In this document: piece by piece, positions 22,214-55,261 of the stretch
Position numbering within the stretch: the stretch's first letter is position 1
Layout of the letters: the number at the start of each line of letters is the position of its first letter
Origin: Myxococcales bacterium
GTDB lineage: Bacteria; Myxococcota_A; Polyangia; Polyangiales; Houyiibacteriaceae
Assembly (NCBI GenBank): GCA_029863605.1
Contig: JAOTVB010000003.1
Span: forward strand, 20,333-84,332
Reading direction: 5' to 3'
DNA: 64,000 nt
Notes under the pieces: model-generated
Told to the model about the DNA's origin: nothing
Database searches by the model: none
The model's input: the letters and a program-made list of their open reading frames with translations, nothing else
Position numbers and translations under genes: made by a program

Positions 22214-22555
22214 TCGACGAGCGAGTTGCACGTCGATGTTGCGCGAACGATAACAAGTCGTAATTCGAAGTGATTGCAACAGCTTGTCAACAGCAAAGCA
22301 ACGGCTCGTAACGCAGTGCGTGTTGCTGTCAAAAAAACGGCATTTGAATCTTTCGCGATCCCAAGTGTTTAGAAGTTTGTTGTGGGATCACCGTAGACGC
22401 ACTCGAAACAGGCTGCTAGTTTCGCGGCCCTTCACTGGAGGAGCGCCAACCGAATCGGCGGATGGTAAAAGGTGAACGGTAACTCGCCCTGAGCAACGTG
22501 TGGACGACTTGGGGACGAAGACGCTGATGTGCGCGGTTTTCGGGGTAGGGAGACG

Positions 22556-23908
22556 ATGGAACAATTGTGGGAACGGACACTTGGCAGTCTGAAGTCGCAT
22601 CTCTCCTCGGAGAACTTCGAAACCTGGCTCCAACCCGTTCAGTTTGGCGGGGTCGAGCCGGATTCCATCGTTCTACGCATCCCGAACCAGTTCTTCGCAG
22701 ATTGGATATCGGCGCACTACCTCGATCTCATTTTCGACACGCTCGATCGTGAGGCAGGCGACTCGAACGTACCGAAGAAGGTCCGCTGGGAGCTGGACGA
22801 AACCCTGCGTGAAAAAGCACAAGCTGCGCGAGAGTCGACAAAACGCCCTCCGCCGAGGGCGACTCCTCGTGAGCCGTCGGTCTTTTCAGACCTCAATCCA
22901 AAGTATCGCTTCAAGAATTTCGTGGTGGGGCCCGCAAATCAGCTTGCACACGCCGCAAGCGTCGCGGTCGGCTCCGATCCCGGTTCTCGCTACAACCCGC
23001 TTTTCATCTACGGCGGGGTTGGGCTCGGCAAGACCCATTTGGTCAACGCGATCGGTCATACCATCCTCCAACGCAATCCCCGCGCCCGCATCCGCTACGT
23101 TTCGGCTGAGCGCTTTACCAACGAGTTCATCTGGTCACTACAGAATCACGAGATCAGCGCGTTTCGAGACCGTTATCGCTCGCAGTGCGACGTCTTGTTG
23201 ATGGATGACATCCAGTTCCTCGCAGGGCGTGAGCAAACTCAAGAAGAGTTCTTTCATACCTTCAACGCCCTCTATCACTCGGACAAGCAGATCGTCGTCA
23301 CCTCCGACGTCTACCCCCAACAGATCTCGGAGATGCAGGAACGCCTGGTCAGTCGCTTTCAGTCCGGGATGGTCGCCGACGTGCAGGTTCCCGAGCTCGA
23401 CACTCGAATTGCGATCCTGCAAAAGAAGGCGGAGACCGAAGGGATCGCGCTCGTGAGCGAGGTGGCGCTTTTTTTGGCACAGATGGTTCGCAGCAACGTG
23501 CGTGAGCTCGAAGGAACACTCCTCCGGGTCGCCGTGAAGGCGGAGCTCTTGGGTCAGCCCATGGGGCTCGAGCTCGCCAAGGAAACGATGCGTCAGGTGA
23601 CTCCGAACCAAGACATGGCGACTACCGTCGAGGACATTCAACGGATCGCATGCGGGTACTTCGGTGTCCGTTTGACCGACTTGAAGTCCCGTCGCCGGCA
23701 TCGCGCCATCAGCTTTCCCCGGATGGTGTCGATGTACATTTGCCGTCAGCGTCTCGGCACCAGCTATCCTGAGCTCGGCGAGCGCTTCGGGGGAAAGGAC
23801 CACACCACGGTAATCAGCGCCGTACGCAAGATCAGCGGCTTGATCGAAGAGCAAGACGAGCGTGTCTTGAGCGCCGTGGGCGCCATCGAACGCAAGCTAG
23901 GCATCTGA
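22556..23908 (+). CDS. dnaA: Chromosomal replication initiator DnaA
   Basis: ATG at 22556 after GGGAG. MEQLWERTLGSLK.., Walker A GGVGLGKTHL, and a C-terminal DNA-binding helix (..HTTVISAVRKI..). Confidence 0.97.
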   Translation: MEQLWERTLGSLKSHLSSENFETWLQPVQFGGVEPDSIVLRIPNQFFADWISAHYLDLIFDTLDREAGDSNVPKKVRWELDETLREKAQAARESTKRPPPRATPREPSVFSDLNPKYRFKNFVVGPANQLAHAASVAVGSDPGSRYNPLFIYGGVGLGKTHLVNAIGHTILQRNPRARIRYVSAERFTNEFIWSLQNHEISAFRDRYRSQCDVLLMDDIQFLAGREQTQEEFFHTFNALYHSDKQIVVTSDVYPQQISEMQERLVSRFQSGMVADVQVPELDTRIAILQKKAETEGIALVSEVALFLAQMVRSNVRELEGTLLRVAVKAELLGQPMGLELAKETMRQVTPNQDMATTVEDIQRIACGYFGVRLTDLKSRRRHRAISFPRMVSMYICRQRLGTSYPELGERFGGKDHTTVISAVRKISGLIEEQDERVLSAVGAIERKLGI

Positions 23909-43451: not shown

Positions 43452-44138
43452 TCACCAGCCGAGGATTGCGACCATGACGCCGGTGGCGACGATGAGGGCA
43501 CCCGCCGTGCTATCACCGTAACGCTCGAGCCATTTGCCTTTGAAGAGACGGGCGCCTGAATGGGCCACCGCTACCAGGGCGACCATCGTTCCAATCGTCG
43601 CCGCTTCGTACGCAACCACGATCGACGCGGTTTCGATGCCAGACAGAGGAGCAGCTGCAAACAAGATCGGAATGACCGCGACGCAGGGGTCTGCGCAGTA
43701 GATCAAGAACAACGACCAAGTCGACGCACGCGATGCATCGTGGACGTGATCGTAGTGATGATGGTGATGACCGTGCAGGCGGTGAGCGAGCGAGTGCCGA
43801 AAGCCCCAGACTGCGTACGCCACTCCGAAGCCGATCAAAAGAAGCCCTGCCACCGACTCCATCTTCTCTCCGAGTGACTCGAACAAGTGGGCCCCAAACA
43901 TCAATGCCAGGAGGCCGAGGAGCACCGAGATCGTGACGTGGCCGAGGCCGCAAAGGAGGGCCACCCGTGCCGTGTGGCTGCGCGACCAGCTTCGCGCGCG
44001 CGCGACGGCCGCGATGGGGACCCAGTGGTCCGGCGCCAGAGAATGCAATGATCCCACGGTGATAGCGGCCATCGTGAGTGTGGCAAAAAGGCTAGTGGTG
44101 CTCATGGCTGTGCTCATGACTGTGCGCGTGATGCTCAA
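43452..44138 (-). CDS. Putative nickel/cobalt permease (HX4DH motif, His-rich loop)
   Basis: About 6 TM helices. ..HSLAPDHW.. fits the NiCoT-type H-x4-D-H signature. Loop ..HRLHGHHHHHYDHVHD... Start is uncertain (ATG 44138, 44117 or 44105) and overlaps the hypB 3' end. Confidence 0.6.
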   Translation of the reverse strand: MSITRTVMSTAMSTTSLFATLTMAAITVGSLHSLAPDHWVPIAAVARARSWSRSHTARVALLCGLGHVTISVLLGLLALMFGAHLFESLGEKMESVAGLLLIGFGVAYAVWGFRHSLAHRLHGHHHHHYDHVHDASRASTWSLFLIYCADPCVAVIPILFAAAPLSGIETASIVVAYEAATIGTMVALVAVAHSGARLFKGKWLERYGDSTAGALIVATGVMVAILGW

Positions 44139-44841
44139 GCGATGTGGACCCCGAGCGTTGCGCGGGCCGCTGGGCCTCGAGCCACTCGAGCCATGCGTCG
44201 ATCCCCTCGCCCGTCTTTGCAGAAACCTTCAGGAGCTTTGCGTCGGGCATGACTCTCGAAAGGGCGTCTTCGACCGCGTGGACGTCGAAGTCCAAGTGGG
44301 GGATCAAATCGACCTTGGTCAACAGTACCAGGTCTGCCTTTTGAAACATGACAGGGTACTTCAGCGGTTTGTCTTCGCCTTCGGTGACCGAGAGCGCGAC
44401 GACGTTTGCAGCTTGGCCGAGATCGTAGATCGCGGGGCAAACCAGGTTCCCCACATTCTCGATGAAGAACACATCGCAATCCGAGCATGGAGCGTGATGC
44501 AAGGTGTGATGCACCAGCCGCGCGTCGAGGTGACAAGCCGAGCCAGTGGTGATCGTGGTCGACCGAATCCCTGCGGCGTTCAACCGGTCGGCGTCGCGAT
44601 CGGTTGCGAGGTCGCCGCTCACCGCTCCGAGACGAAGCCTCCCTCCGGCTGCTCGGGCGGTGGCCTCGAGAACTGCCGTCTTTCCGGCTCCTGGGGAGCC
44701 CATCAAGTTGATGGCAAGCACCGCTAACCCTTCGAAATGACGACGATTATGGGCTGCCTGCGCATCGTTGTCGGAGAGGATCCGCTCCTGCACCTCGACC
44801 GGGACGATCTCGGGGTCGCCGCATCCACAGGTCTCACACAT
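44092..44841 (-). CDS. hypB: Hydrogenase nickel-incorporation GTPase HypB
   Basis: MCETCGCG N-terminal metal site, GSPGAGKT P-loop, ..ENVGNLVCP.., His-rich C-terminal tail ..EHHAHSHEHSHEHH. Confidence 0.95.
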   Translation of the reverse strand: MCETCGCGDPEIVPVEVQERILSDNDAQAAHNRRHFEGLAVLAINLMGSPGAGKTAVLEATARAAGGRLRLGAVSGDLATDRDADRLNAAGIRSTTITTGSACHLDARLVHHTLHHAPCSDCDVFFIENVGNLVCPAIYDLGQAANVVALSVTEGEDKPLKYPVMFQKADLVLLTKVDLIPHLDFDVHAVEDALSRVMPDAKLLKVSAKTGEGIDAWLEWLEAQRPAQRSGSTSLEHHAHSHEHSHEHH

Positions 44842-45181
44842 CGGGGGCCTCCATTTCGATTCGTTCGAGGATGATCTCGTCGCCGTGAATCATCCGTGCG
44901 GGACGTCCACAGGTATCGCACCGCAACACGGCACCTCTCGCGATGACACGGTCACAACTCGGACAGGCCCAGACCGCGGCGACTGAGTCGATTGCGAGCT
45001 CCGCGCCTTCACAGATTGTCCGCTCACGAAAAGTGTCGAACGCCGTCTTCAGTAGATCGAGCTCGACACCGGCGAGCTCGCCGATCTTCACGTGGAGACG
45101 ATGCACGCGCGTGCTCCCGTGAAGCACTGCTTCTTGCTGCACGCGGTCGATGAGGGAACCGACGATGGAGTACTCGTGCAT
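44834..45181 (-). CDS. hypA: Hydrogenase nickel-insertion protein HypA
   Basis: ATG at 45181 gives MHEYSIV... Two CxxC pairs (CPSC, CDTC). Confidence 0.93.
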   Translation of the reverse strand: MHEYSIVGSLIDRVQQEAVLHGSTRVHRLHVKIGELAGVELDLLKTAFDTFRERTICEGAELAIDSVAAVWACPSCDRVIARGAVLRCDTCGRPARMIHGDEIILERIEMEAPDV

Positions 45182-45182
45182 G

Positions 45183-46028
45183 TCATCCCTCGCTTTCGAA
45201 ACGTGGAGCACGCTTCTCGAAAAACGCCGCGATGCCCTCGGCAAAGTTCGGCCCATCAGCAATGCGCGCGAGCTCGGTCAGCTCCGCGTCGAGGTGGACG
45301 TCGAGCCGGTCCATCCCGGCCGCCTGGTTGAGGAGGTTCTTGGCAGCGGCGACCGCGGACGTCGGGGCTTCGGCAAGCTGAGTAGCGATTTCGAGAGCTT
45401 TCTCGCCGAAGGAATCATCCGGAAAAACCCGGTTGATCAGCCCCCATTCCAAGGCGTCTCGAGCCGATAGACGCGGGTTCAGCAGGACGAGCTCGAGCGC
45501 CTTTCGTAGCCCCAACAACCGCGGCAAAAAGAAGGTGGAGCTCTCCGCACCGGTCAGGCCCGTCTTGAAGTAGGCCCATTCGAACCACGCGCGCTCCGAT
45601 GCGACGACGAGGTCGCAACTCATGGCGATCCCGAAGCCCCCGGCGGCCGCAGGGCCATCGACCGCGGCGATGAACGGCTTTGGCGCGCGCCGAATCTCCG
45701 AAATGGTGCTGTGGATGTATTCGAGGATCTGTTTGAAGATCTCGCCGTAACCCTCCGTCGGTTGGCAAGTGCTCGGCTGCAGGTAACCGAGGTCGGTGTC
45801 GTCGCCTCCGTCGCGGATGTACTTGAGGTCGGCGCCGCTACAAAATACGCCGCCTTCGCCACAGATCAAAACCGAACGAACCTCTTTGTCTCGCGCGAGT
45901 CGGAGGCCGGCCTTCCTGAAGTCTTGAGCCGTCTCGACATCGAGAGAGTTCAGTCGCTCGCGGCGAGCGATCGTCAGGATGCCCACGGGGCCACGTCGTT
46001 CGACTCGGATGTGTTTCATCTCGGTCAT
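45183..46028 (-). CDS. Crotonase-fold (enoyl-CoA hydratase/isomerase family) protein embedded in the hyp operon
   Basis: ATG at 46028 lies 1 nt after the hypE stop codon. Its own stop codon ends 1 nt before the hypA ATG. ..GEGGVFCSGADL.. and ..FIAAVDGPAAAGGFGIAMSCD.. are oxyanion-hole segments. Confidence 0.85.
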   Translation of the reverse strand: MTEMKHIRVERRGPVGILTIARRERLNSLDVETAQDFRKAGLRLARDKEVRSVLICGEGGVFCSGADLKYIRDGGDDTDLGYLQPSTCQPTEGYGEIFKQILEYIHSTISEIRRAPKPFIAAVDGPAAAGGFGIAMSCDLVVASERAWFEWAYFKTGLTGAESSTFFLPRLLGLRKALELVLLNPRLSARDALEWGLINRVFPDDSFGEKALEIATQLAEAPTSAVAAAKNLLNQAAGMDRLDVHLDAELTELARIADGPNFAEGIAAFFEKRAPRFESEG

Positions 46029-46029
46029 G

Positions 46030-47070
46030 TCAGCAGATCCTAGGTAAGAGCTCGCCTTCGGCCTCCGAGAGCAAACGGCTCCCAAACCCCGTATCGAGCA
46101 CGACGAACCCGGGTCGCTCAGCCACGCATTGTCCGACGATTGCAGCCATTCGTCCGAGCGGGTGCGAGCGGATCGCGTCGAGAACGCCGGCCGCGCTTTC
46201 AGGCCGAACGCCAAATACTGCCTTTCCTTCGTTCGCCGAAACCAGCGGGTCGATGCCAAGCAGTTCCCCGACCGCACGAACCTCGTCGCGCAACGGGATC
46301 GACGGCTCATCGATCACGATCCCAACCCCGCTCTTCTCGGCCATCTCGTGCAGGGCGCTCGACAAGCCACCGCGCGTGGGATCTTTCAGCGCGACGATCC
46401 CGTCGCCTCCGACCTCGAGCGCACGTCGGACCATGGTATTGATCGGAGCGACGTCCGAAACGAGCTCGGTTTCCAAGGCCAGCTCGTTTCGCGTCGCCAT
46501 GATCGCCAGACCGTGATCTCCCATCGTTCCTGTCACCAGGATTTGGTCCCCAGGCTCGAGCCCGGCATCGGTCACGATTCGGTCGGTGATGCCCACGCCG
46601 GTCGTGTTCAACACCAGGCCGTCGAGCTCGCCGTGCCCCATCACTTTCGTGTCGCCGGTGACGATAGTCGTTCCCGCTTCTTCGCAGCACGTGCGGATCG
46701 ACTTCCAGATGCCCTTCAACGTCTCGCGGGAAAACCCATCTTCGACGATCGCGGCGCAGGTGAGCGCAAGCGGCTCAGTAGCTCCCATCATCGCGAGATC
46801 ATTGACGGTTCCGGCGACAGCGAGCGTTCCGATGTCGCCTCCCGGAAAGACGATCGGCTGGACCACGTGAGAGTCGGTCGTGATCACCAGGTAGCGATCG
46901 CCCAGTCGGATCGCCGCACCGTCGTCCATCGCCGCCAAGCCGACGTTTCCTTCTCCTAGGTCGCCGAGGCCCTTGGCGAAGATCTGCTCGATCAGCGCGC
47001 GCATCGCGCCACCGCCGGTGCCGTACTTGAGCGTGATGCGCTCGTCGATGAGGCGGGCGTTTCGAGTCAT
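46030..47070 (-). CDS. hypE: Hydrogenase maturation protein HypE
   Basis: 346 aa PurM-like fold with C-terminal ..PRIC. Confidence 0.95.
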   Translation of the reverse strand: MTRNARLIDERITLKYGTGGGAMRALIEQIFAKGLGDLGEGNVGLAAMDDGAAIRLGDRYLVITTDSHVVQPIVFPGGDIGTLAVAGTVNDLAMMGATEPLALTCAAIVEDGFSRETLKGIWKSIRTCCEEAGTTIVTGDTKVMGHGELDGLVLNTTGVGITDRIVTDAGLEPGDQILVTGTMGDHGLAIMATRNELALETELVSDVAPINTMVRRALEVGGDGIVALKDPTRGGLSSALHEMAEKSGVGIVIDEPSIPLRDEVRAVGELLGIDPLVSANEGKAVFGVRPESAAGVLDAIRSHPLGRMAAIVGQCVAERPGFVVLDTGFGSRLLSEAEGELLPRIC

Positions 47071-48215
47071 GCGACACCTCGCTTCATCGAGCTGAGATCG
47101 GGGTGGCCGCCGTACTGATGCCAGATCCTGCAGGTGCCTTCAGCGCTGACCATGCACGCACCGACCGGCGTGTCGGGCGTGCACTCTTTGCCGAACAAGG
47201 AGCAGTCGGAGGGTGAGGCGATCCCGGCCATGATGTCTCCGCACTGGCATTGCTGAACGAGCTTCGGCGGTGCGTAGCTCCACAACGCAGACGCGTCGAT
47301 CGTGAACCGCTTTCTCGTGTCGTAGCGGGCGAACTCGTCCCGCAATCGGAGGTTTCCGTTGGGCACGTGCGCGATGCCTCGCCAACGGCCTCCCGTAGGC
47401 CGAAAAACGCGCCAAAGAAGCTCCTGAGCGTGCGCGTTGCCTTCCCGTGTGACGCATCGGGGATAGGCGTTTTCGACCTTGGCCTCCCCTGCGTTGATCA
47501 GCTCGAGCAGTCGAACGAGGCCCGCAAGAACGTCCAAGGGTTCGAAGCCCGCCACCACGACCGGCAAACGGTGACGTTCGACGAATTTTTCGAAAACCGC
47601 CGAGCCGGTGATCGTGGCTGCATGGCCCGCTGCGAGAAAGCCCTCGATCTTGGTCTCGGGCATCTCCGCCACGATCTCCATGACCGGGGGGATGTACTTG
47701 TGTGCGGAGAGGACGGAAAAATTGTCGGGCGGATCGTCCACGAGGACAGCCGCGGTTGCGACTGCGGTCGTCTCGAAGCCCGACGCAAAGAAGACCAGCT
47801 CCTCGTCGGTGTCACGGGCGAGGTCGACCGCTTGCGTGACGCTGTAGACCACGTCGACATGGGCGCCGTCGGCCTTGGCGTCGGCGAGCGATTGCGAGGT
47901 TCCCGGCACGCGAAGCATGTCGCCGTAGGACGCGATGCGTACGCCCTGCTTGGCGAGGGCTACCGCTTCGTCCACTTCTGGCACATCCGTCACACAAACC
48001 GGACAGCCTGGGCCCATTATAACCCGCAAATCAGCCGGAAAAGCAGCCCTCAAGCCGAACTTCGCGATCGCCTGCTCGTGGCTGCCGCAGACGTGCATCA
48101 CCGAAACCGGAGCATGATCGGCGCGAGACACCAAGCGCTCGAGGGCGTCTCTCAGGGCCCGCGCCCGAACTGGATCGCGAAATTTTAGCTGCGCAAGCGC
48201 GTCATTCGGAAGCAT
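47067..48215 (-). CDS. hypD: Hydrogenase maturation protein HypD
   Basis: 382 aa. ..MHVCGSHE.., ..GPGCPVCV.., ..FETT... Confidence 0.95.
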   Translation of the reverse strand: MLPNDALAQLKFRDPVRARALRDALERLVSRADHAPVSVMHVCGSHEQAIAKFGLRAAFPADLRVIMGPGCPVCVTDVPEVDEAVALAKQGVRIASYGDMLRVPGTSQSLADAKADGAHVDVVYSVTQAVDLARDTDEELVFFASGFETTAVATAAVLVDDPPDNFSVLSAHKYIPPVMEIVAEMPETKIEGFLAAGHAATITGSAVFEKFVERHRLPVVVAGFEPLDVLAGLVRLLELINAGEAKVENAYPRCVTREGNAHAQELLWRVFRPTGGRWRGIAHVPNGNLRLRDEFARYDTRKRFTIDASALWSYAPPKLVQQCQCGDIMAGIASPSDCSLFGKECTPDTPVGACMVSAEGTCRIWHQYGGHPDLSSMKRGVA

Positions 48216-48525
48216 CGTAGGCCTCCCTTGCTGAGGGCGCAGCGTAGGGTGCGGCGTCGATCTCGGACCGTATGTCCTGGGTTATCAGGTCTTGGTCATC
48301 CGCGAGCCGCAAGAGCTCGTCGTAGAGCGCGAGAGTTTCGATCGCCTCGTCGGGAGGAATGCGACGGATCGCAAACCCGACGTGGTTCAGAATGTAGTCG
48401 CCCGGTGCTACCGGCACGTCACAGACCTCGAGGCGCACCTCCTTCTTCACGCCCCAAAAATCGACTGTCGCGGTGTTGCGATCACGATCGACGGCGACGA
48501 CCTGCCCTGGAACACCTAAGCACAT
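48202..48525 (-). CDS. hypC: Hydrogenase maturation chaperone HypC
   Basis: ATG at 48525 gives MCLGVPGQVV.. (essential N-terminal Cys2). The C-terminal tail is longer than usual. Confidence 0.9.
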   Translation of the reverse strand: MCLGVPGQVVAVDRDRNTATVDFWGVKKEVRLEVCDVPVAPGDYILNHVGFAIRRIPPDEAIETLALYDELLRLADDQDLITQDIRSEIDAAPYAAPSAREAYDASE

Positions 48526-50807
48526 GGGGTTGAGCCTTCCGCTACGATTGCGTTCGCGATCAATACCTGTCCGAGGGCGAGCCCACCGTCTCCCGGCGGC
48601 ACTCGAGAATGCGTGAAGCATTCGAATTCATTTTGTAATTCGGCCAGAACACCCTGGGTCAGGATCGGGTTTTGAAACACTCCTCCGGTAAGCACCACAG
48701 GTGGCTGTCCGATCACCTCGGCCAAGCCACGCACCACGGCGCCCGTTGCTCCGATCAGCGTGTTGTGGAACTTCGCCGAGATCGTGCTCGCCGCAACGCC
48801 GCGCATTACATCTTCGACGACCGCGCGAACCATCGGTCGGAGGTCGATGATCTCGACCGCCCCGGTGCGGTCGATCTCGAACGGATACGAGGCACGCTCG
48901 GTCACATCCGCGATCACGTTCAAAGCGACCGCCACCTGTCCTTCGAACGTCGAGTCTGGGCGGTTCAGCACCAAAGCCCCAACCGCGTCGAAGTAGCGCC
49001 CGACGCCATGCGCTTGCGGCGCGTTGAGATGGCGATCGATCATCTGAGTGACTACGCGAATCGATTCGTCGGGAATCCTTTGAAAGAGCGGAAATTCATC
49101 GATCGGTGCGTCTCCGGAGAACGCGTCATGCAGCAGGCTGAGGGCCACGCGCCACACCTCGCGCATGGCGAGGTTTCCGCCCGGGAGCTTGATCGGCCGA
49201 AACGTCGCCAAACGCCGAAAATGCCCTGTGAAACAGAGCAAGAGCTCCCCGCCCCACGCAGTGCCGTCGTTTCCGTAGCCCGTGCCGTCGTAAGCGATTC
49301 CGAGCACCGGTCCCCGCAGACCATGCTCGGCCATCGCGCTCACCACGTGGGCGTGGTGGTGCTGCACGCCGATCGTCTCCGCTCCGCCTCGCGCTTTCGC
49401 GTAGCGCGTCGACAGGTAGCCAGGATGCAGGTCGTGCGTGACCACTTCCGGCTCCACCGAAAGAATCGTTTGCATGCGATCGACCGCCTCTTCGAAAAAC
49501 TCCATGGCTGCGAGCGTTTCGAGGTCTCCGATGTGGGGCCCGAAGTACGCCGTGTCCTCTACGGCGATGCAGAAGGTGTTCTTGAGGTGTGCACCACAGG
49601 CAAGGACCGGGCGGTCGACGGATTCTTTCAACTGGAACGGCCTTGGAACGAACCCGCGCGAACGACGCATGACCGTCGCTTTTCCGGCGATCACCCGAGC
49701 GACCGAATCATCGCAACGCATCGCGATGTCGCGGTCGTGGACCAAAAGGACATCCGCAATGCCTCCGAGTCGTGCGATCGCCTCCGCGTTGTCCTTGCAA
49801 ATCGGCTCGCCTGCGATGTTGGCCGAGGTCATGACCAGTGGGCGATCGACTTCGCGAAGGAGCAGGTGGTGGAGGGGTGTATACGGCAAGAAAAGCCCTA
49901 AAACAGGGGATTCCGGGGCCACCTCCGCGGCGAGTGGAGCATCGGGACGGCGCTCGACCAGGACGATCGGCCTCTCCTGCGACGAAAGCAGCAATTCCTC
50001 TTCTGTCGTCAAGTTCGCAAGCGACCTGGCCACCGCGAGGTCACGCGCCATGACGGCGAACGGTTTTTCGTCTCGATGCTTTCGCGCGCGAAGCTTTCGA
50101 ACCACAGGCGCATCGGACGCGTCGCATGCGAGATGAAACCCCCCCAACCCTTTGATCGCGACGATCGCTCCGCCGCGAAGCAAGCCGACTGCAGTCGCCA
50201 GCGGGTCGTCGCAGATCGTCTCGGTGCCATCCGGCTCGCACAAAGAGAGCTTTGGTCCGCATTCGGGGCACGCATTGGGCTGCGCATGGAACCGACGATC
50301 CATGACATCGTGAAACTCGCGCTCGCACGATGGGCACAGAGCAAAGTCATGCATCGTCGTCGCAGAGCGATCATAGGGAATGTCCGTCGTGATCGTGAAA
50401 CGCGGACCGCACTCGGTGCAGTTCGTGAAGGGATATCGGTATCGACGATCGTTCGGGTCGAGCACCTCCTCTTCACACTTGTTGCAAGTTGCGAGATCCG
50501 GCGGAATCGAAAGAGCCCGGGCGCCGACCCCCTCGCTTGGCTCGATCACGAAGTCCTCGGCCAGCTCCGGCGGGATCTTCGAAAGGCGCAGCTCTCGGAT
50601 CCGGGCAGAGGCAGGCGTATCATCCCGTAACCATTGAACAAACGACTCTAGCGACCCTGCACCTCCAAATGCTTCGATCGTCACTCCTTCCGAATGGTTC
50701 CACACCCGACCAGCCAGGCCTGCGCGGCGCGCCAACCGGTATACCCAAGGTCGAAACCCAACCCCTTGCACCGTGCCGCGCACCTCGATTCGACATCCCT
50801 CGCTCAT
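48516..50807 (-). CDS. hypF: Carbamoyltransferase HypF
   Basis: ATG at 50807. Acylphosphatase domain (..VRGTVQGVGFRPWVY..), two zinc-finger pairs, YrdC-like and Kae1-like domains. 763 aa. Confidence 0.95.
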   Translation of the reverse strand: MSEGCRIEVRGTVQGVGFRPWVYRLARRAGLAGRVWNHSEGVTIEAFGGAGSLESFVQWLRDDTPASARIRELRLSKIPPELAEDFVIEPSEGVGARALSIPPDLATCNKCEEEVLDPNDRRYRYPFTNCTECGPRFTITTDIPYDRSATTMHDFALCPSCEREFHDVMDRRFHAQPNACPECGPKLSLCEPDGTETICDDPLATAVGLLRGGAIVAIKGLGGFHLACDASDAPVVRKLRARKHRDEKPFAVMARDLAVARSLANLTTEEELLLSSQERPIVLVERRPDAPLAAEVAPESPVLGLFLPYTPLHHLLLREVDRPLVMTSANIAGEPICKDNAEAIARLGGIADVLLVHDRDIAMRCDDSVARVIAGKATVMRRSRGFVPRPFQLKESVDRPVLACGAHLKNTFCIAVEDTAYFGPHIGDLETLAAMEFFEEAVDRMQTILSVEPEVVTHDLHPGYLSTRYAKARGGAETIGVQHHHAHVVSAMAEHGLRGPVLGIAYDGTGYGNDGTAWGGELLLCFTGHFRRLATFRPIKLPGGNLAMREVWRVALSLLHDAFSGDAPIDEFPLFQRIPDESIRVVTQMIDRHLNAPQAHGVGRYFDAVGALVLNRPDSTFEGQVAVALNVIADVTERASYPFEIDRTGAVEIIDLRPMVRAVVEDVMRGVAASTISAKFHNTLIGATGAVVRGLAEVIGQPPVVLTGGVFQNPILTQGVLAELQNEFECFTHSRVPPGDGGLALGQVLIANAIVAEGSTPCA

Positions 50808-51205
50808 GGCCCGTTTCCTGAGACGCTCAGAACATAGGTGACCACCTCCCACTTTTCTTGGTCCGTCAAGGTGGGCCACGCGGGCATCGAGGTCCCGCGT
50901 TTGCCTTCGCTCACGACCGCGTAGACGCCGCGCGGCGTCGCACTTGCACGCCACTCCTGGCTTTGAAAGTTGACGGGTCGCGCCGAGAGCCCTTCCTGCC
51001 GCACGCCGTTTCCATCGGCACGCACGCCGTGGCACAGGGCACACTTCTCGCTGAAGATCGCACGCCCACGCACGCGCGCCTCGTCCGAAGCGAGGAGACC
51101 GGCAGGCACCGGGAGGTTCCGATAATCGGTCGGGAGGCGCCCATCAACGCCGTTACACGCCGAGAGTGCGAGCGACATGATCAACGCTCCTCGTGCTGTT
51201 CTCAT
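50804..51205 (-). CDS. Class I c-type cytochrome, probable lipoprotein
   Basis: ..LALSAC lipobox, a single CALCH haem motif, ..GTSMPAW.. (axial Met region). Start is ATG 51205 or 51178. Its stop overlaps the hypF ATG (ATGA). Confidence 0.75.
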   Translation of the reverse strand: MRTARGALIMSLALSACNGVDGRLPTDYRNLPVPAGLLASDEARVRGRAIFSEKCALCHGVRADGNGVRQEGLSARPVNFQSQEWRASATPRGVYAVVSEGKRGTSMPAWPTLTDQEKWEVVTYVLSVSGNGP

Positions 51206-51701
51206 GGCGATCCAATCGTCGAATCGGCGGATAACCGAGCGTGCGGAGCTCCTCCACGACTCGCTCGACGAGCTCGGGAATGCTGGCTTCGACCGCTTCG
51301 GTACGGCCAAGGCCGAGGTCGATGCTTTGTGGGACTACGCCGATCAACACCACTCGGTCCGGGTAGCGGTCGAGCAGGCTTGCTCCTGCGAGCAGGTCCG
51401 CGACCCCAATTTGATGCGGGGACAAGCGCTCGTAGACAGCGGGGGCTACTTCGTCGCCCTCGATCCTGACGAGCGTTCCAGGTGGCCCCTCAGCGCGGAT
51501 CGCGTCGACCATGATCACCTGCTCGGCGCTGTCGACGAGTGGCAAGAGCGACAGCCCGAGCGTGCCTCCGTCGAGCGCCAACACACCCTCCGGAAGATCG
51601 TACTCCCGGAGCAGCTTGTGGATCGCCGCGATGCCCGCTCCATCGTCTTGGCAAACCACGTTGCCAAGTCCGAGGACCAACACCGGCGTCCGCTCACTCA
51701 T
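51153..51701 (-). CDS. [NiFe] hydrogenase maturation endopeptidase (HyaD/HupD family)
   Basis: ..VLVLGLGNVVCQDDGAG.., ..VDAIRAEGPPG.., ..SPHQIG... Confidence 0.9.
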   Translation of the reverse strand: MSERTPVLVLGLGNVVCQDDGAGIAAIHKLLREYDLPEGVLALDGGTLGLSLLPLVDSAEQVIMVDAIRAEGPPGTLVRIEGDEVAPAVYERLSPHQIGVADLLAGASLLDRYPDRVVLIGVVPQSIDLGLGRTEAVEASIPELVERVVEELRTLGYPPIRRLDRHENSTRSVDHVARTLGV

Positions 51702-52434
51702 CACGCTTGCGCCATGACCGCGGAAGGAACTTGTAACCGCTGAACATCGAATCGATGAGGCCGTGTCCCTCGGACCGCGAGACCAGAATCGCGCTCCAGA
51801 TGTGGTGGGCGAAGAAGCCGAGGAGCAGCCACATCGCGATGTGATGAATCCACCGTGCAGTCTGCGCGCCGCCGAGGATCGGAAGCAGGAAGTCCCACAT
51901 TTTCATGTACGACACGCCCGCCCCGACGGAGTACAGGGCAAGCCCGGTCACGATCATCGTGAAGTAGAGCGCGAACACGAGGAGATAGGTGAGCCCGGCA
52001 AGGGGGTTATGCCCAACGTTCAAAGGGGGCTCCCGACTGAGGAAAGTGTAGAACTTGAGCATGCTCCACACGTCGCGGCGGCGGCGCGCGCTTGCCGGCA
52101 CGAATTGGTGCCATCGCGCGTAGTACGAGCCGACGAACATCCAGCCGACACGGACCAGCACGGCTAGCGTGAACACGATCGCGGTGTAGGAGTGGACGAC
52201 CTTCATCGTCCCCATCACGAACTGTTGGTCTTCTGCGCCGGCGGGGATGAAGAAGGGCCTTCCGATGTAGATACCTGTGACCGCCTGGATCAGGATCGCG
52301 AGCATGATGATCCAGTGCGTCAGGCGCACGACCGCATCCCACACGTAGACACGCTCGAGCCCTCCGGTCTCGTCTTTGGCTCGATAGCTGACCTCTGGCC
52401 GTGCACCTCCGGCGGTTGTCGTCGGCGGGGTCAT
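51694..52434 (-). CDS. [NiFe] hydrogenase b-type cytochrome subunit (HyaC/HupC family)
   Basis: ATG at 52434 overlaps the large-subunit stop (ATGA). 246 aa, 4 TM helices, conserved His residues (..RLTHW.., ..HSYTA.., ..RWIHHI..). Confidence 0.9.
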   Translation of the reverse strand: MTPPTTTAGGARPEVSYRAKDETGGLERVYVWDAVVRLTHWIIMLAILIQAVTGIYIGRPFFIPAGAEDQQFVMGTMKVVHSYTAIVFTLAVLVRVGWMFVGSYYARWHQFVPASARRRRDVWSMLKFYTFLSREPPLNVGHNPLAGLTYLLVFALYFTMIVTGLALYSVGAGVSYMKMWDFLLPILGGAQTARWIHHIAMWLLLGFFAHHIWSAILVSRSEGHGLIDSMFSGYKFLPRSWRKRDE

Positions 52435-54137
52435 CTCGCCTTCACGCGAGTGACCTCGCGCCCTCCCGTGTCGACCACGTGCACACCGCAGGCCATGCAG
52501 GGATCGAACGAATGAACGGTACGGAGGATCTCGATCGGTTGCTCGGGATCCGCAACGGGTGTTCCGACCAGGGCTGCCTCGTAAGGCCCAGGGGTATCGC
52601 CGGCGTCGCGTGGCCCAGCGTTCCAGGTGCTCGGGACGACGCACTGATAGCGATTGATTTTGGCGTCTTTGATGTGCACCCAGTGACCGAGCGCACCGCG
52701 CGGCGCCTCGTGGAAGCCAGCACCCGTGGACTCTTTCGGCCAAGAGCTCGGCTCCCATTTGCTGTTGTCGTGGATGCGAAGCTCGCCACTGCCCATGTTG
52801 GCCGCGAGCTCGTCGACCCAGTCGCCGATCTTATCGACGAGAACCTGGGTTTCGATACCGCGCGCGGCAACTCTACCGAGGGTCGAGAACAGGGCCGCGG
52901 GCCCGACTTCGAGCTTCTTGAGCACCGCGTTGACCAGGGCGGTCACCTGCTCATGTCCCTGAACGTAGGAGACGAGCATGCGAGAGAGCGGCCCCACCTC
53001 CATCGGCACGCCGTCGTAGCGCGGGGATTTCAGCCACGAGTACTTCTCCGAAGTGTTGAGACGCTCGTAGGGTGGCTCCGGCCCGGTGTAGTTCGGGCTG
53101 GTCTCGCCCTCCGATGGGTGGAGCGCCTGGTCATCCCCGGCCGCGTAGTCGTACCAGGAGTGTTTGATGTGCTCCGTGATCTTTGATGCATCAAACGCTT
53201 CCACCTTCGAAATATCCCGGTTGCGGATGATGCCGGATGGAATGAAGAGCGGAGAGTTCGACTCGTCGTTCAGTGGGTACTCGCCGTAGACCATGTAGTT
53301 CCCGACGCCGGCGCCGTACCCAGCCCAGTCTTTGTAGAACGAAGCGACGGCCAACAGGTCCGGGATGTAGACTTGGCTCACGAACTGCTTCGCGCCGGCG
53401 ATCATGTCCTTGAAGGCGGCGATCGAATGCACGTTGAGGGCGGCCTGAGCATTCGGATCGACCGGCGTCGCCATGCCTCCCACCAAAAAGCTCTGCAGAT
53501 GTGGGTTTTTCCCGCCCAGAATCGCATGCATCTTGATGAACTCGCGCTGCCAATCGAGGGCCTCGAGGTAGTGTGCGACCGCCATGAGATTGGCCTCCGG
53601 CGGAAGCTTGTATGCGGGATGACCCCAATAGGCGTTGCCAAACGGGCCGAGCTGCCCGCGGTCCACGAGCCCCTTGATGCGGTCTTGGATCCCCTTGAAG
53701 TACGTCGTGCTTGACTTGGGCCAGTTCGAGATCGATTGAGCGAGCGTGGACGTCCCTGCCGGGTCGGCCTTCAGTGCGGACACGATGTCGACCCAATCGA
53801 GCGCATGCAGATGATAGAAATGGATGACGTGATCCTGAATGCACTGCGACGCGATGATCAGGTTCCTCAAGATGCGGGCGTTCGGTGGCGGTTTCGCGCC
53901 GATGGCATTTTCGACGGCGCGAATCGAAGCGATCGCGTGCACCGTCGTGCAGACTCCGCAGATCCGTTGAGTAAAGGCCCACGCATCGCGTGGGTCGCGG
54001 CCCTGTAAGATGATCTCGATCCCTCGGAACATCGTGGAGGACGACCAGGCGTTCGATACCTGACCTCCATCGACCTCTGCCTCGATGCGTAGGTGACCTT
54101 CGATGCGCGTGACCGGATCGACGACGATATGAGTCAT
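52431..54137 (-). CDS. [NiFe] hydrogenase large subunit (group 1-like)
   Basis: ..RIEGH.., RICGVCTTVH, and C-terminal DPCMACGVH followed by a 15-aa extension for protease cleavage. Confidence 0.97.
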   Translation of the reverse strand: MTHIVVDPVTRIEGHLRIEAEVDGGQVSNAWSSSTMFRGIEIILQGRDPRDAWAFTQRICGVCTTVHAIASIRAVENAIGAKPPPNARILRNLIIASQCIQDHVIHFYHLHALDWVDIVSALKADPAGTSTLAQSISNWPKSSTTYFKGIQDRIKGLVDRGQLGPFGNAYWGHPAYKLPPEANLMAVAHYLEALDWQREFIKMHAILGGKNPHLQSFLVGGMATPVDPNAQAALNVHSIAAFKDMIAGAKQFVSQVYIPDLLAVASFYKDWAGYGAGVGNYMVYGEYPLNDESNSPLFIPSGIIRNRDISKVEAFDASKITEHIKHSWYDYAAGDDQALHPSEGETSPNYTGPEPPYERLNTSEKYSWLKSPRYDGVPMEVGPLSRMLVSYVQGHEQVTALVNAVLKKLEVGPAALFSTLGRVAARGIETQVLVDKIGDWVDELAANMGSGELRIHDNSKWEPSSWPKESTGAGFHEAPRGALGHWVHIKDAKINRYQCVVPSTWNAGPRDAGDTPGPYEAALVGTPVADPEQPIEILRTVHSFDPCMACGVHVVDTGGREVTRVKAR

Positions 54138-55261
54138 GCGTCACCTCCTTCCGAGCCTTTGGTAGGGTCTGCGGGCTTGTCTTCGCCTCCAGAACCGACC
54201 AGCTTCTTGCCGAGGTGAATCAGGGTGTGCGTTCCAAACGCAGCCGCGACGCCGACGGTTCCCCAGAAGCCGACCTTGTCGATGTTCGAAGCCTTTCCAA
54301 AGCCCGGGAAACCCGGAAGGTGGGCGTAGAAGGGCGTCATCTTGTCCCAGAAATCAGGCTCGGCGCAGCCGATGCATCCGTGGCCGCAGGCGATCGGCCA
54401 GCTGGTGTTGTCGTTCCAGCCGACATTCGGGCAGTTCTGGAAAGACACCGGCCCCTTGCAGCCCATCTTGTAGAGGCAGTGCCCCTGGCGGTGAGCCTCG
54501 TCGCCCCACTGCTCCACATACTGGCCGGAGTCGTAGTGCGCTCGTCTCTCGCAGTTGTCGTGAATGGACTTTCCGTATGCGAAGAGCGGTCGGTTCAGTG
54601 CGTCGGTTGCCGGCCAGCGTCCATAGGTAAGGAAATACACGACGGTAGCCGTGAGGTTCTCGGCGTTCACTGGACAAGCCGAGAGATTGATCTGCGTCTT
54701 GATCCCGGGAACTGCGTCAGCGACACCCAACGCGCCCGTTGGATTCGGTGACGCCGCAGGGAGCCCACCGAAAGTCGCGCAAGTGCCGACCGCAATGACT
54801 GCGGCAGCATTGCTGCACACTTCGTTCGCGATCTGCAGGGCGGACTTGCCGCCGATCGTGCAGTACGCACCGTTTGCTCCGGTTGGGATCGAGCCCTCGA
54901 CGACCGCGATGTATTGGCCCTGCTTGTTCTTCACCACCGACTCGAGCGCTTCTTCGGCTCGATGTCCGGCCGCCGCCATGATCGTCTCGTGGTAATCGAT
55001 CGAAAGGAGGTCGAGCACGACCTCGGCAGCGCTTGGTTTGCTCGAGCGCAGAAACGACTCGGTGTTGCCAGCACAGTCCTGGAACTCCAGCCAGACCAAT
55101 GTCGGCTTGGGTTTGTTCTCGAGTGCGTCTGCGATCGCGGCAGCCGCGCTCTTCGGCAAACCGATCATCACGGCCATCGCGGAGCAGAAGCCCAGGAACT
55201 CGCGGCGCGATACTCCGCGCGCCTCCAACTCGCGGCATAGATCACTCGTCGGTCCGTCCAT
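54134..55261 (-). CDS. [NiFe] hydrogenase small subunit with Tat signal
   Basis: ATG at 55261 after GAGGAGG. Tat motif SRREFLG, FeS-cluster Cys/His pattern, C-terminal TM anchor. The first cluster motif reads DCAGNTES rather than C-x-x-C. Confidence 0.95.
   Translation of the reverse strand: MDGPTSDLCRELEARGVSRREFLGFCSAMAVMIGLPKSAAAAIADALENKPKPTLVWLEFQDCAGNTESFLRSSKPSAAEVVLDLLSIDYHETIMAAAGHRAEEALESVVKNKQGQYIAVVEGSIPTGANGAYCTIGGKSALQIANEVCSNAAAVIAVGTCATFGGLPAASPNPTGALGVADAVPGIKTQINLSACPVNAENLTATVVYFLTYGRWPATDALNRPLFAYGKSIHDNCERRAHYDSGQYVEQWGDEAHRQGHCLYKMGCKGPVSFQNCPNVGWNDNTSWPIACGHGCIGCAEPDFWDKMTPFYAHLPGFPGFGKASNIDKVGFWGTVGVAAAFGTHTLIHLGKKLVGSGGEDKPADPTKGSEGGDA

Follow-up and report, generated by a model that had tools for sequence, protein, structure and literature searches.

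HypX (HoxX), which makes the CO ligand of [NiFe]-hydrogenases under aerobic conditions, has been described as a fused two-domain protein, found mainly in Pseudomonadota, Aquificota, Actinomycetota and cyanobacteria, and is to our knowledge the only known CO-forming (carbon monoxide-forming) enzyme of hydrogenase maturation. HypC and HypD together provide the scaffold for assembly of the Fe(CN)2CO unit. A structure exists for A. aeolicus HypX (PDB 6J0P). HypX's N-terminal domain makes formyl-coenzyme A (formyl-CoA), which is decarbonylated by the crotonase-like C-terminal domain (PMC6802093, PMC12134894). HypX has been reported in complex with HypC and HypD, and Tyr416 and Glu426 of the A. aeolicus protein, which are Tyr439 and Glu449 in R. 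eutropha, are located at the CoA thiol; mutations of Tyr439/Glu449 in R. eutropha result in a HypX-minus phenotype (PMC6802093). Here we describe a stand-alone crotonase gene in a 64-kb window (the whole stretch of Myxococcales DNA that was analysed), located between hypE and hypA, whose product is probably a formyl-CoA decarbonylase supplying CO to HypCD.

The gene fills the hypX slot directly after hypE: in C. necator, Rhizobium and Bradyrhizobium, canonical hypX comes after hypE, and the order in Sulfurovum is hypE-hypX-hypA. In the literature on hyp operons that we searched, there was no stand-alone crotonase, split HypX or formyltransferase-crotonase gene pair, HypX being described there as a fused protein only, and no source annotation names are on record for the protein clusters of the family. 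Judging from the comparisons below, it is most likely a previously undescribed family, in which HypX-type CO-ligand synthesis would occur in unfused and in partner-less form, built from different subfamilies.

The crotonase gene and its linkage to hyp genes

The gene and its borders are as follows.
45183..46028, minus strand: crotonase gene, 281 aa, between hypE and hypA (translation; Pfam ECH_1, E-value 4.5e-49)
46041..46038, minus strand: Shine-Dalgarno-like motif AGGA, 9 nt before the crotonase ATG and within the end of hypE (direct reading)
46032-46030, minus strand: hypE stop codon TGA (direct sequence reading); 46029 is a single spacer base
46028-46026, minus strand: crotonase ATG, opening the 281-codon open reading frame (ORF)
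45185-45183, minus strand: crotonase stop codon TGA; 45182 is a single spacer base
45181-45179, minus strand: hypA ATG (direct sequence reading)

The longest in-frame ORF reaches an ATG at 46310, within hypE; because the homologues begin at 46028, the ATG at that position is the likely start. An earlier preliminary description of the locus, made from the sequence alone, had placed the start 1 nt past the hypE stop codon and the stop codon 1 nt ahead of the hypA ATG, and had recognized a crotonase half alone, of 281 aa; sequence, translation and the Pfam ECH_1 match all agree with it. It had also called the gene co-translated with its neighbours. The tight packing makes translational coupling and co-transcription probable, but 1-nt spacings do not show co-translation. 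A metatranscriptome contig that matches 45786-46062 exactly, spanning the hypE/crotonase junction, is consistent with a single hypE-crotonase transcript, with DNA carry-over being possible.

Relatives were collected from two independent sources, giving 160 loci with 59-96% identity to the window protein. A scan of genomes, one per species, yielded 80 loci (65-96% identity), and a scan of JGI metagenomes, seeded with the distant family member P0015, returned at least 600 stretches, of which at least 545 were confirmed relatives and 80 contigs were kept. The genome loci belong to Myxococcota (Polyangiales, Sandaracinaceae, Kofleriaceae), Methylomirabilota/Rokubacteria and Acidobacteriota (Thermoanaerobaculia, Vicinamibacteria), the closest being from a Myxococcales metagenome-assembled genome with 96% identity. 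Hyp genes, located by tblastn with the window's own Hyp proteins as probes, flank the homologue in 79 of the 80 genome loci, mostly in the order hypE-crotonase-hypA-hypB. The sole genome locus lacking intact hyp neighbours, L055:7557-8831, has a HypE C-terminal fragment (AIRS_C) upstream in the same frame, and on this sequence is a decayed or rearranged operon. Hyp genes are also found on 69 of the 80 JGI contigs, and the remaining contigs are too short to judge.

Three gene orders occur among the relatives: hypE-crotonase-hypA, hypE-formyltransferase-crotonase-hypA and hypD-crotonase-hypE. The association with hyp genes thus survives rearrangement. The third order was found in five to six contigs (L142, L144, L152, L154, L160 and also L126), whose crotonases are ~59-60% identical to the window protein and whose hypE is only ~45% identical. 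In a 1.84-billion-protein representative library the limits of the family are sharp, with members at or above ~250 bits and >50% identity, and generic crotonases starting at ~180 bits and ~40% identity. P0016 (44% identity), the nearest paralogue to lack hyp linkage, lies beside metal-ATPase and TIR genes. By gene order, then, the crotonase gene is a stable member of hyp operons and not a passenger, and its product is very probably a hydrogenase maturation factor. Closest homologues that were metabolic enzymes without hyp linkage would have spoken against the preliminary description; instead, the 160 close loci are hyp-linked wherever a flank exists.

Active-site residues and the relation to PaaG and HypX

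The protein scores 167.5 bits against ECH_1 (PF00378), above the curated threshold (cut-off 27). An AlphaFold2 model, built with library proteins as the input alignment, has a predicted local distance difference test (pLDDT) score of 94.6 and a predicted template modelling (pTM) score of 0.91, and exhibits the spiral beta-beta-alpha crotonase fold followed by a C-terminal helical domain. All 50 listed Foldseek matches are crotonases (template modelling (TM) scores 0.8-0.95), with PaaG on top: the T. thermophilus (6SL9/6SLB) and E. coli (4FZW_C) structures match with an E-value of 4e-25, TM scores of 0.83-0.90 and 34% identity. By phmmer, PaaG and other crotonases are likewise the closest solved relatives (~1e-35, 30-34% identity).

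The protein shares ECH_1 membership and the oxyanion-hole glycine motifs with canonical enoyl-CoA hydratases (E. coli PaaF, rat ECH), but both catalytic glutamates of these enzymes are replaced. In the alignment with E. coli PaaF, G-A-G-C-E-L-A pairs with A-G-G-F-G-I-A, placing Gly133 at the first glutamate, and L-P-E-I pairs with W-A-Y-F, placing Tyr153 at the second. The loss of both glutamates, proposed earlier from a manual alignment, is hence confirmed against a bona fide hydratase. As a further likeness to PaaG, members of the PaaG-like clade commonly have Tyr or Phe at position 153. In contrast, the catalytic Asp of PaaG (in P-D-G; Asp136 in T. thermophilus PaaG) corresponds to Ala161, a Glu follows one residue later at position 162, and paa genes are absent from the context.

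The two residues that are essential in HypX have counterparts in the window protein. BLASTP against C. necator HypX (27% identity, E-value 2e-10) pairs Tyr439 with Tyr153 and Glu449 with Glu162, and MAFFT with eight HypX C-domains gives the same pairing, the equivalence being one of alignment; the A. aeolicus residue numbering was reconstructed and checked. The codons of the two residues are as follows.
45570..45572, minus strand: Tyr153 codon TAC, at the second hydratase Glu position, aligning with HypX Tyr439 (C. necator) / Tyr416 (A. aeolicus)
45543..45545, minus strand: Glu162 codon GAG, aligning with HypX Glu449/Glu426; the family-diagnostic acid

Around this site, G-A-E of the family compares with P-D-G in PaaG-like neighbours and G-S-E in HypX, and the distance to the downstream L-P-R/K motif is equal in the family and in HypX. 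Among 116 full-length library representatives, Glu162 is present only in family-like sequences, and P0016 lacks it in the alignment. In these alignments Glu162 is the informative residue, setting the family apart from its PaaG-like neighbours. Conservation at the key positions of the 160 loci was as follows.
Gly133: 160/160 loci
Glu150: 160/160 loci
Trp151: 158/160 loci
Tyr153: 159/160 loci
Ala161: 160/160 loci
Glu162: 160/160 loci

Across the three phyla E150, W151, Y153, K155, E162, S163, S164 and T165 are invariant or nearly so, and the oxyanion-hole motifs G65-A66-D67-L68 and G130-G131, which align with those of PaaF and PaaG, are present in all full-length family sequences.

These data bear on two alternatives. 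The first, that the gene encodes an ordinary metabolic enoyl-CoA hydratase/isomerase of the PaaG-like kind, belonging to fatty-acid or aromatic catabolism and present in the operon by chance, is highly improbable. The best database names are indeed metabolic (NCBIfam 'oxepin-CoA hydrolase, alternative type' and PaaG; PaaG/ECH entries of the PDB at ~1e-35), but the NCBIfam scores lie far below the curated cut-offs (NF046063, 185 vs 300 bits; TIGR02280, 158 vs 345 bits), the hydratase Glu/Glu pair and the PaaG Asp are all replaced, each of the 160 relatives either has hyp linkage or lies on a contig too short for a decision, and the window holds no other beta-oxidation or paa gene. Replaced catalytic residues, hyp linkage and sub-cut-off scores agree with the earlier argument against an ordinary fatty-acid enzyme. 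As specific assignments, enoyl-CoA hydratase proper (EC 4.2.1.17) was ruled out by the absence of the two catalytic glutamates, and PaaG-type isomerase by the absence of the catalytic Asp together with the low NCBIfam scores.

The second alternative is a non-catalytic crotonase-fold subunit, serving as a scaffold, as a chaperone that binds CoA or acyl-CoA, or as a partner docking on HypCD or HypE. It would account for the loss of both hydratase glutamates and of the PaaG aspartate, and would be in keeping with the reported complex of HypX with HypC and HypD (PMC6802093). Near-invariance of the oxyanion-hole motifs and of residues in the active-site region across three phyla is, on the other hand, typical of a working site, and we regard such a subunit as very unlikely.

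Compared with the HypX C-domain, the window protein has the same crotonase fold, likewise without the two hydratase glutamates, and its relatives are associated with a formyltransferase of the type that uses N10-formyl-tetrahydrofolate (N10-formyl-THF). It differs in several respects. It consists of the crotonase domain only, with no formyltransferase domain attached; its C-terminal helical part is complete, as in ordinary crotonases, and the HypX C-terminal tail is missing; it carries a family-specific insertion at residues ~72-98; and its local motif is E-W-A-Y, vs N-P-H-Y in HypX. In a neighbour-joining tree the family stands beside PaaG-like sequences, and HypX forms a long branch near the root, a placement that is uninformative.

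No fused formyltransferase-crotonase form was found among the long high-scoring library matches (P0010, P0019, P0033, P0061, P0064, P0116, P0132 and others); these were rejected as fusions, being tandem crotonases, SnoaL fusions or frame-shifted calls. In plasmids of Sulfurovum mangrovi and Mesorhizobium huakuii (L087:6001-7618 and L088:5055-6632, respectively), hypX is annotated in pieces, one being a formyltransferase family protein and the other hypothetical or related to enoyl-CoA hydratase, and is probably frameshifted or decaying. These split annotations resemble canonical hypX broken into fragments, and the evidence presented here makes no use of them.

Formyltransferase neighbours and a proposed route to the CO ligand

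A PurN-like formyltransferase gene lies between hypE and the crotonase gene in 56 of the 160 loci (27 of the 80 genome loci, all from Acidobacteriota, and 29 of the 80 metagenome contigs). There, a gap of ~700 bp between hypE and the crotonase gene encodes a Formyl_trans_N protein of 180-290 aa (Pfam, 7.4e-21). Upstream formyltransferase genes that are coupled translationally to the crotonase gene are frequent. Three examples are listed.
L059:7267-8004: formyltransferase gene between hypE and crotonase; its stop overlaps the crotonase start
L106:6160-6876: formyltransferase gene between hypE and crotonase
L109:2784-3428: formyltransferase gene between hypE and crotonase

The protein scores 70 bits against NCBIfam PurN, below the 150-bit cut-off, and matches GAR transformylase of the PDB (2.4e-15). 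The catalytic Asn-x-His and Asp of PurN are present, and 8 additional residues are inserted behind the catalytic His. This PurN-like partner differs from the N-domain of HypX, which is Fmt/FDH-like.

A second formyltransferase subfamily accompanies P0015, a protein with 41% identity to that of the window; P0015 shares its insertion and carries an E-W-A-Y-x-K...A-E motif. On a low-GC 3-kb contig (L095), hypE is followed by an Fmt-like formyltransferase gene (1255-2130) and the P0015 crotonase gene (2132-2968). The Fmt-like protein (291 aa, Formyl_trans_N and Formyl_trans_C) is 28% identical to the HypX N-domain (E-value 8e-13). The contig presents a third, more HypX-like, two-gene arrangement. 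It is the one contig from which the Fmt-type arrangement is known, and among the matches listed in the P0015-seeded metagenome scan only main-family members, with 38-46% identity to P0015, were found and no further Fmt-type split loci. The N10-formyl-THF-type formyltransferase, in its PurN-like and Fmt-like subfamilies, is the only recurrent extra neighbour of the crotonase gene. HypX-type access to N10-formyl-THF-dependent formyl transfer may be provided by an adjacent gene in the 56 loci and in L095; no such gene adjoins the crotonase gene in the window or in Myxococcota loci. In a closed Thermoanaerobaculia chromosome, a 423-aa insertion-sequence transposase ORF, integrase-like by sequence (L063:6208-7479), lies between hypE and the crotonase gene, at the site of the formyltransferase in other relatives.

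Loci that have the formyltransferase and loci that lack it share the same active-site invariants, which favours a single chemistry family-wide. We propose that formyl-CoA would bind with its carbonyl in the crotonase oxyanion hole, that Glu162 and Tyr153, directly or via water, would abstract the formyl proton, and that formyl-CoA would be decarbonylated to CO and CoA-SH. The CO would then be captured by the iron on HypC-HypD and serve as carbonyl ligand in the Fe(CN)2CO unit. In many Acidobacteriota the upstream PurN-like enzyme would formylate CoA from N10-formyl-THF, two genes replacing the fused HypX; in the lineage of the window (Myxococcota, Polyangiales-like), formyl-CoA may come from an unlinked formyltransferase or from a metabolic pool. 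A stand-alone protein would call for release and rebinding of formyl-CoA, or for complex formation. We infer the substrate, the release of CO and its delivery to HypCD from these comparisons. A CO-ligand function had been suggested in the preliminary description, and is strongly supported by the comparative evidence of hyp linkage, formyltransferase neighbours and the Tyr/Glu match; the formyltransferase partner expected with it was not found in the window.

Crotonase-family enzymes also catalyse hydrolysis and decarboxylation. A crotonase dedicated to the hyp system could accordingly carry out some other reaction, as a thioesterase or hydrolase of formyl-CoA or a small acyl-CoA, as a decarboxylase of oxalyl-CoA or a malonyl-type substrate that feeds a one-carbon (C1) unit into the making of the ligand, or on a thioester or thiocarbamate intermediate bound to protein in the HypE/HypF cyanide branch. 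Linkage to hyp genes proves a role in maturation, not which reaction is catalysed; the gene always adjoins hypE, in some loci between hypD and hypE; and many lineages, that of the window included, have no adjacent formyltransferase. Against this stand the nature of the only recurrent extra neighbour, which in both of its subfamilies points to a formyl unit, the match of the Tyr/Glu pair to that of the HypX decarbonylase, and the sameness of the active-site invariants with and without a formyltransferase, which favours one chemistry. Chemistry of another kind is therefore unlikely, though it deserves more weight than the two alternatives discussed above.

Several observations weigh against a formyl-CoA decarbonylase of the HypX type. 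The window protein is nearer to PaaG-like crotonases (~40% identity) than to the HypX C-domain (27% identity, E-value 2e-10), and HypX is neither among the best 60 of 204 PDB sequence matches nor among the 50 Foldseek matches listed. A hidden Markov model (HMM) of the HypX C-domain gives the family a mean of 70.7 bits vs 51.4 bits for generic neighbours, but the ranges overlap (generic 26-75 bits; window protein 63). Tyr153 alone is not diagnostic, since most PaaG-like neighbours have Tyr or Phe there. HMMs built from the 27 acidobacterial formyltransferase genes and eight HypX N-domains detected no formyltransferase among all six-frame ORFs of the 64-kb window (best E ~1), nor within 8 kb of any Myxococcota or Methylomirabilota locus (best E > 1), which leaves no linked gene as a source of formyl-CoA in the lineage of the window. 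Moreover, the CoA of HypX is a tethered cofactor swinging between fused domains (PMC6802093), a mechanism that is not transferable unchanged to a stand-alone protein.

These points also bear on how the protein may be related to HypX. The preliminary description had considered it one half of a split canonical HypX, to be checked by alignment with HypX C-domains and by a search for a separate formyltransferase. The alignment bears out the Tyr/Glu pair and not a specific closeness to HypX, the search found no such partner in the 64 kb of the window, and a simple split is not supported, given the lower identity to HypX, its position outside the listed PDB and Foldseek matches and the PurN-like partner. 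The comparisons suggest instead that the protein and the HypX C-domain are functional analogues, or else relatives of very deep origin, and that the protein is not a simple fission product; because of its nearness to PaaG and the PurN-like partner, either parallel assembly of the two-step chemistry or a very old divergence may be envisaged. A more specific version, which we consider tentative and somewhat doubtful, is that a free-standing decarbonylase arose from a PaaG-like crotonase by a path separate from that of HypX, with a PurN-like, an Fmt-like or no partner, and that partner-less lineages use the cellular formyl-CoA pool. As for the formyltransferase, its loss or relocation in the lineage of the window is weakly indicated to be likelier than gain elsewhere, because in the neighbour-joining tree the loci that have it form a basal acidobacterial grade with the Myxococcota clade nested inside.

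In three phyla that are abundant in soil and sediment (Acidobacteriota, Myxococcota and Methylomirabilota), the hypX slot is thus filled by a sharply delimited crotonase family. If its members are formyl-CoA decarbonylases, enzymatic synthesis of the CO ligand in a form compatible with O2 would be more widely distributed than is now known, and the two half-reactions would naturally reside on two polypeptides, making the decarbonylase step, which has never been isolated from HypX, assayable alone. The partner-less form would serve as a test of whether free formyl-CoA feeds the hydrogenase cofactor. Genome annotation, in which these genes are now nameless or called enoyl-CoA hydratases, would improve, as would metagenomic prediction of the capacity for aerobic H2 oxidation. 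Should independent assembly also hold, CO-ligand synthesis would be modular, formyl-CoA would be a general diffusible carbonyl precursor and not a HypX-tethered intermediate, and a testable route to the CO ligand's origin would be available for organisms without HypX.

The hydrogenase operon and the remainder of the window

The surrounding minus-strand genes are a complete uptake-hydrogenase and maturation operon, in the order small subunit, large subunit, cytochrome b, HycI-type protease, small c-type cytochrome, hypF, hypC, hypD, hypE, crotonase, hypA, hypB and a 206-aa protein without assigned function. The identical crotonase is encoded on 7 public sediment metagenome contigs with the gene order unchanged. 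The other genes of the operon are listed below.
54134..55261, minus strand: [NiFe]-hydrogenase small subunit, 375 aa, with Tat signal (gene call; NCBIfam hydA, 2.7e-121)
52431..54137, minus strand: [NiFe]-hydrogenase large subunit, 568 aa (Pfam NiFeSe_Hases, 2.6e-237)
51694..52434, minus strand: hydrogenase b-type cytochrome subunit (Pfam Ni_hydr_CYTB)
51153..51701, minus strand: HycI/HyaD-type maturation endopeptidase (Pfam HycI, 3.7e-26)
50804-51178, minus strand: c-type cytochrome (Cytochrome_CBB3 / Cytochrom_C), 124 aa, between the maturation protease and hypF; also in L100
48516..50807, minus strand: hypF, 763 aa (Pfam Acylphosphatase, zf-HYPF, Sua5, HypF_C)
48202..48525, minus strand: hypC, 107 aa (Pfam HupF_HypC; gene call)
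47067..48215, minus strand: hypD, 382 aa (Pfam HypD, 1.1e-128)
46030..47070, minus strand: hypE, 346 aa (Pfam AIRS and AIRS_C; gene calls on public contigs)
44834..45181, minus strand: hypA, 115 aa (Pfam HypA, 1.5e-26)
44092..44841, minus strand: hypB, 249 aa (Pfam cobW/HypB/UreG)
43452-44072, minus strand: 206-aa protein, N-terminus MAAITVGSLHSLAPDHW, without Pfam or NCBIfam match

The 124-aa c-type cytochrome is present in addition to the b-type cytochrome subunit of the operon. Most of the 160 related loci also encode the 206-aa protein after hypB, so that it is probably a further factor specific to the operon; a role in the membrane or in metal handling is possible.

When 20 more large ORFs of the window were scanned against Pfam, housekeeping functions alone were returned; genes for formyl-CoA transferase, oxalyl-CoA decarboxylase or C1 metabolism were not among them, and the remainder of the window is chromosomal housekeeping DNA. 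Two of its genes lie ~20 kb from the hydrogenase operon and place the window near the chromosomal replication origin.
22529-23908, plus strand: dnaA
24254-25399, plus strand: dnaN

The small subunit of the hydrogenase reads D-C-A-G-N-T-E-S at residues ~60-68, vs E-C-T-C-C-S-E-S in C. necator HoxK, Asn replacing the second N-terminal Cys of the proximal Fe-S cluster motif. C-A-G-N also occurs in seven Myxococcota/Acidobacteriota loci (L028, L036, L100, L054, L058, L060 and L071), and the usual C-x-G-C is found in two others (L048 and L074). This pattern suggests that the ligation of the proximal cluster may be unusual in hydrogenases accompanying the crotonase family.

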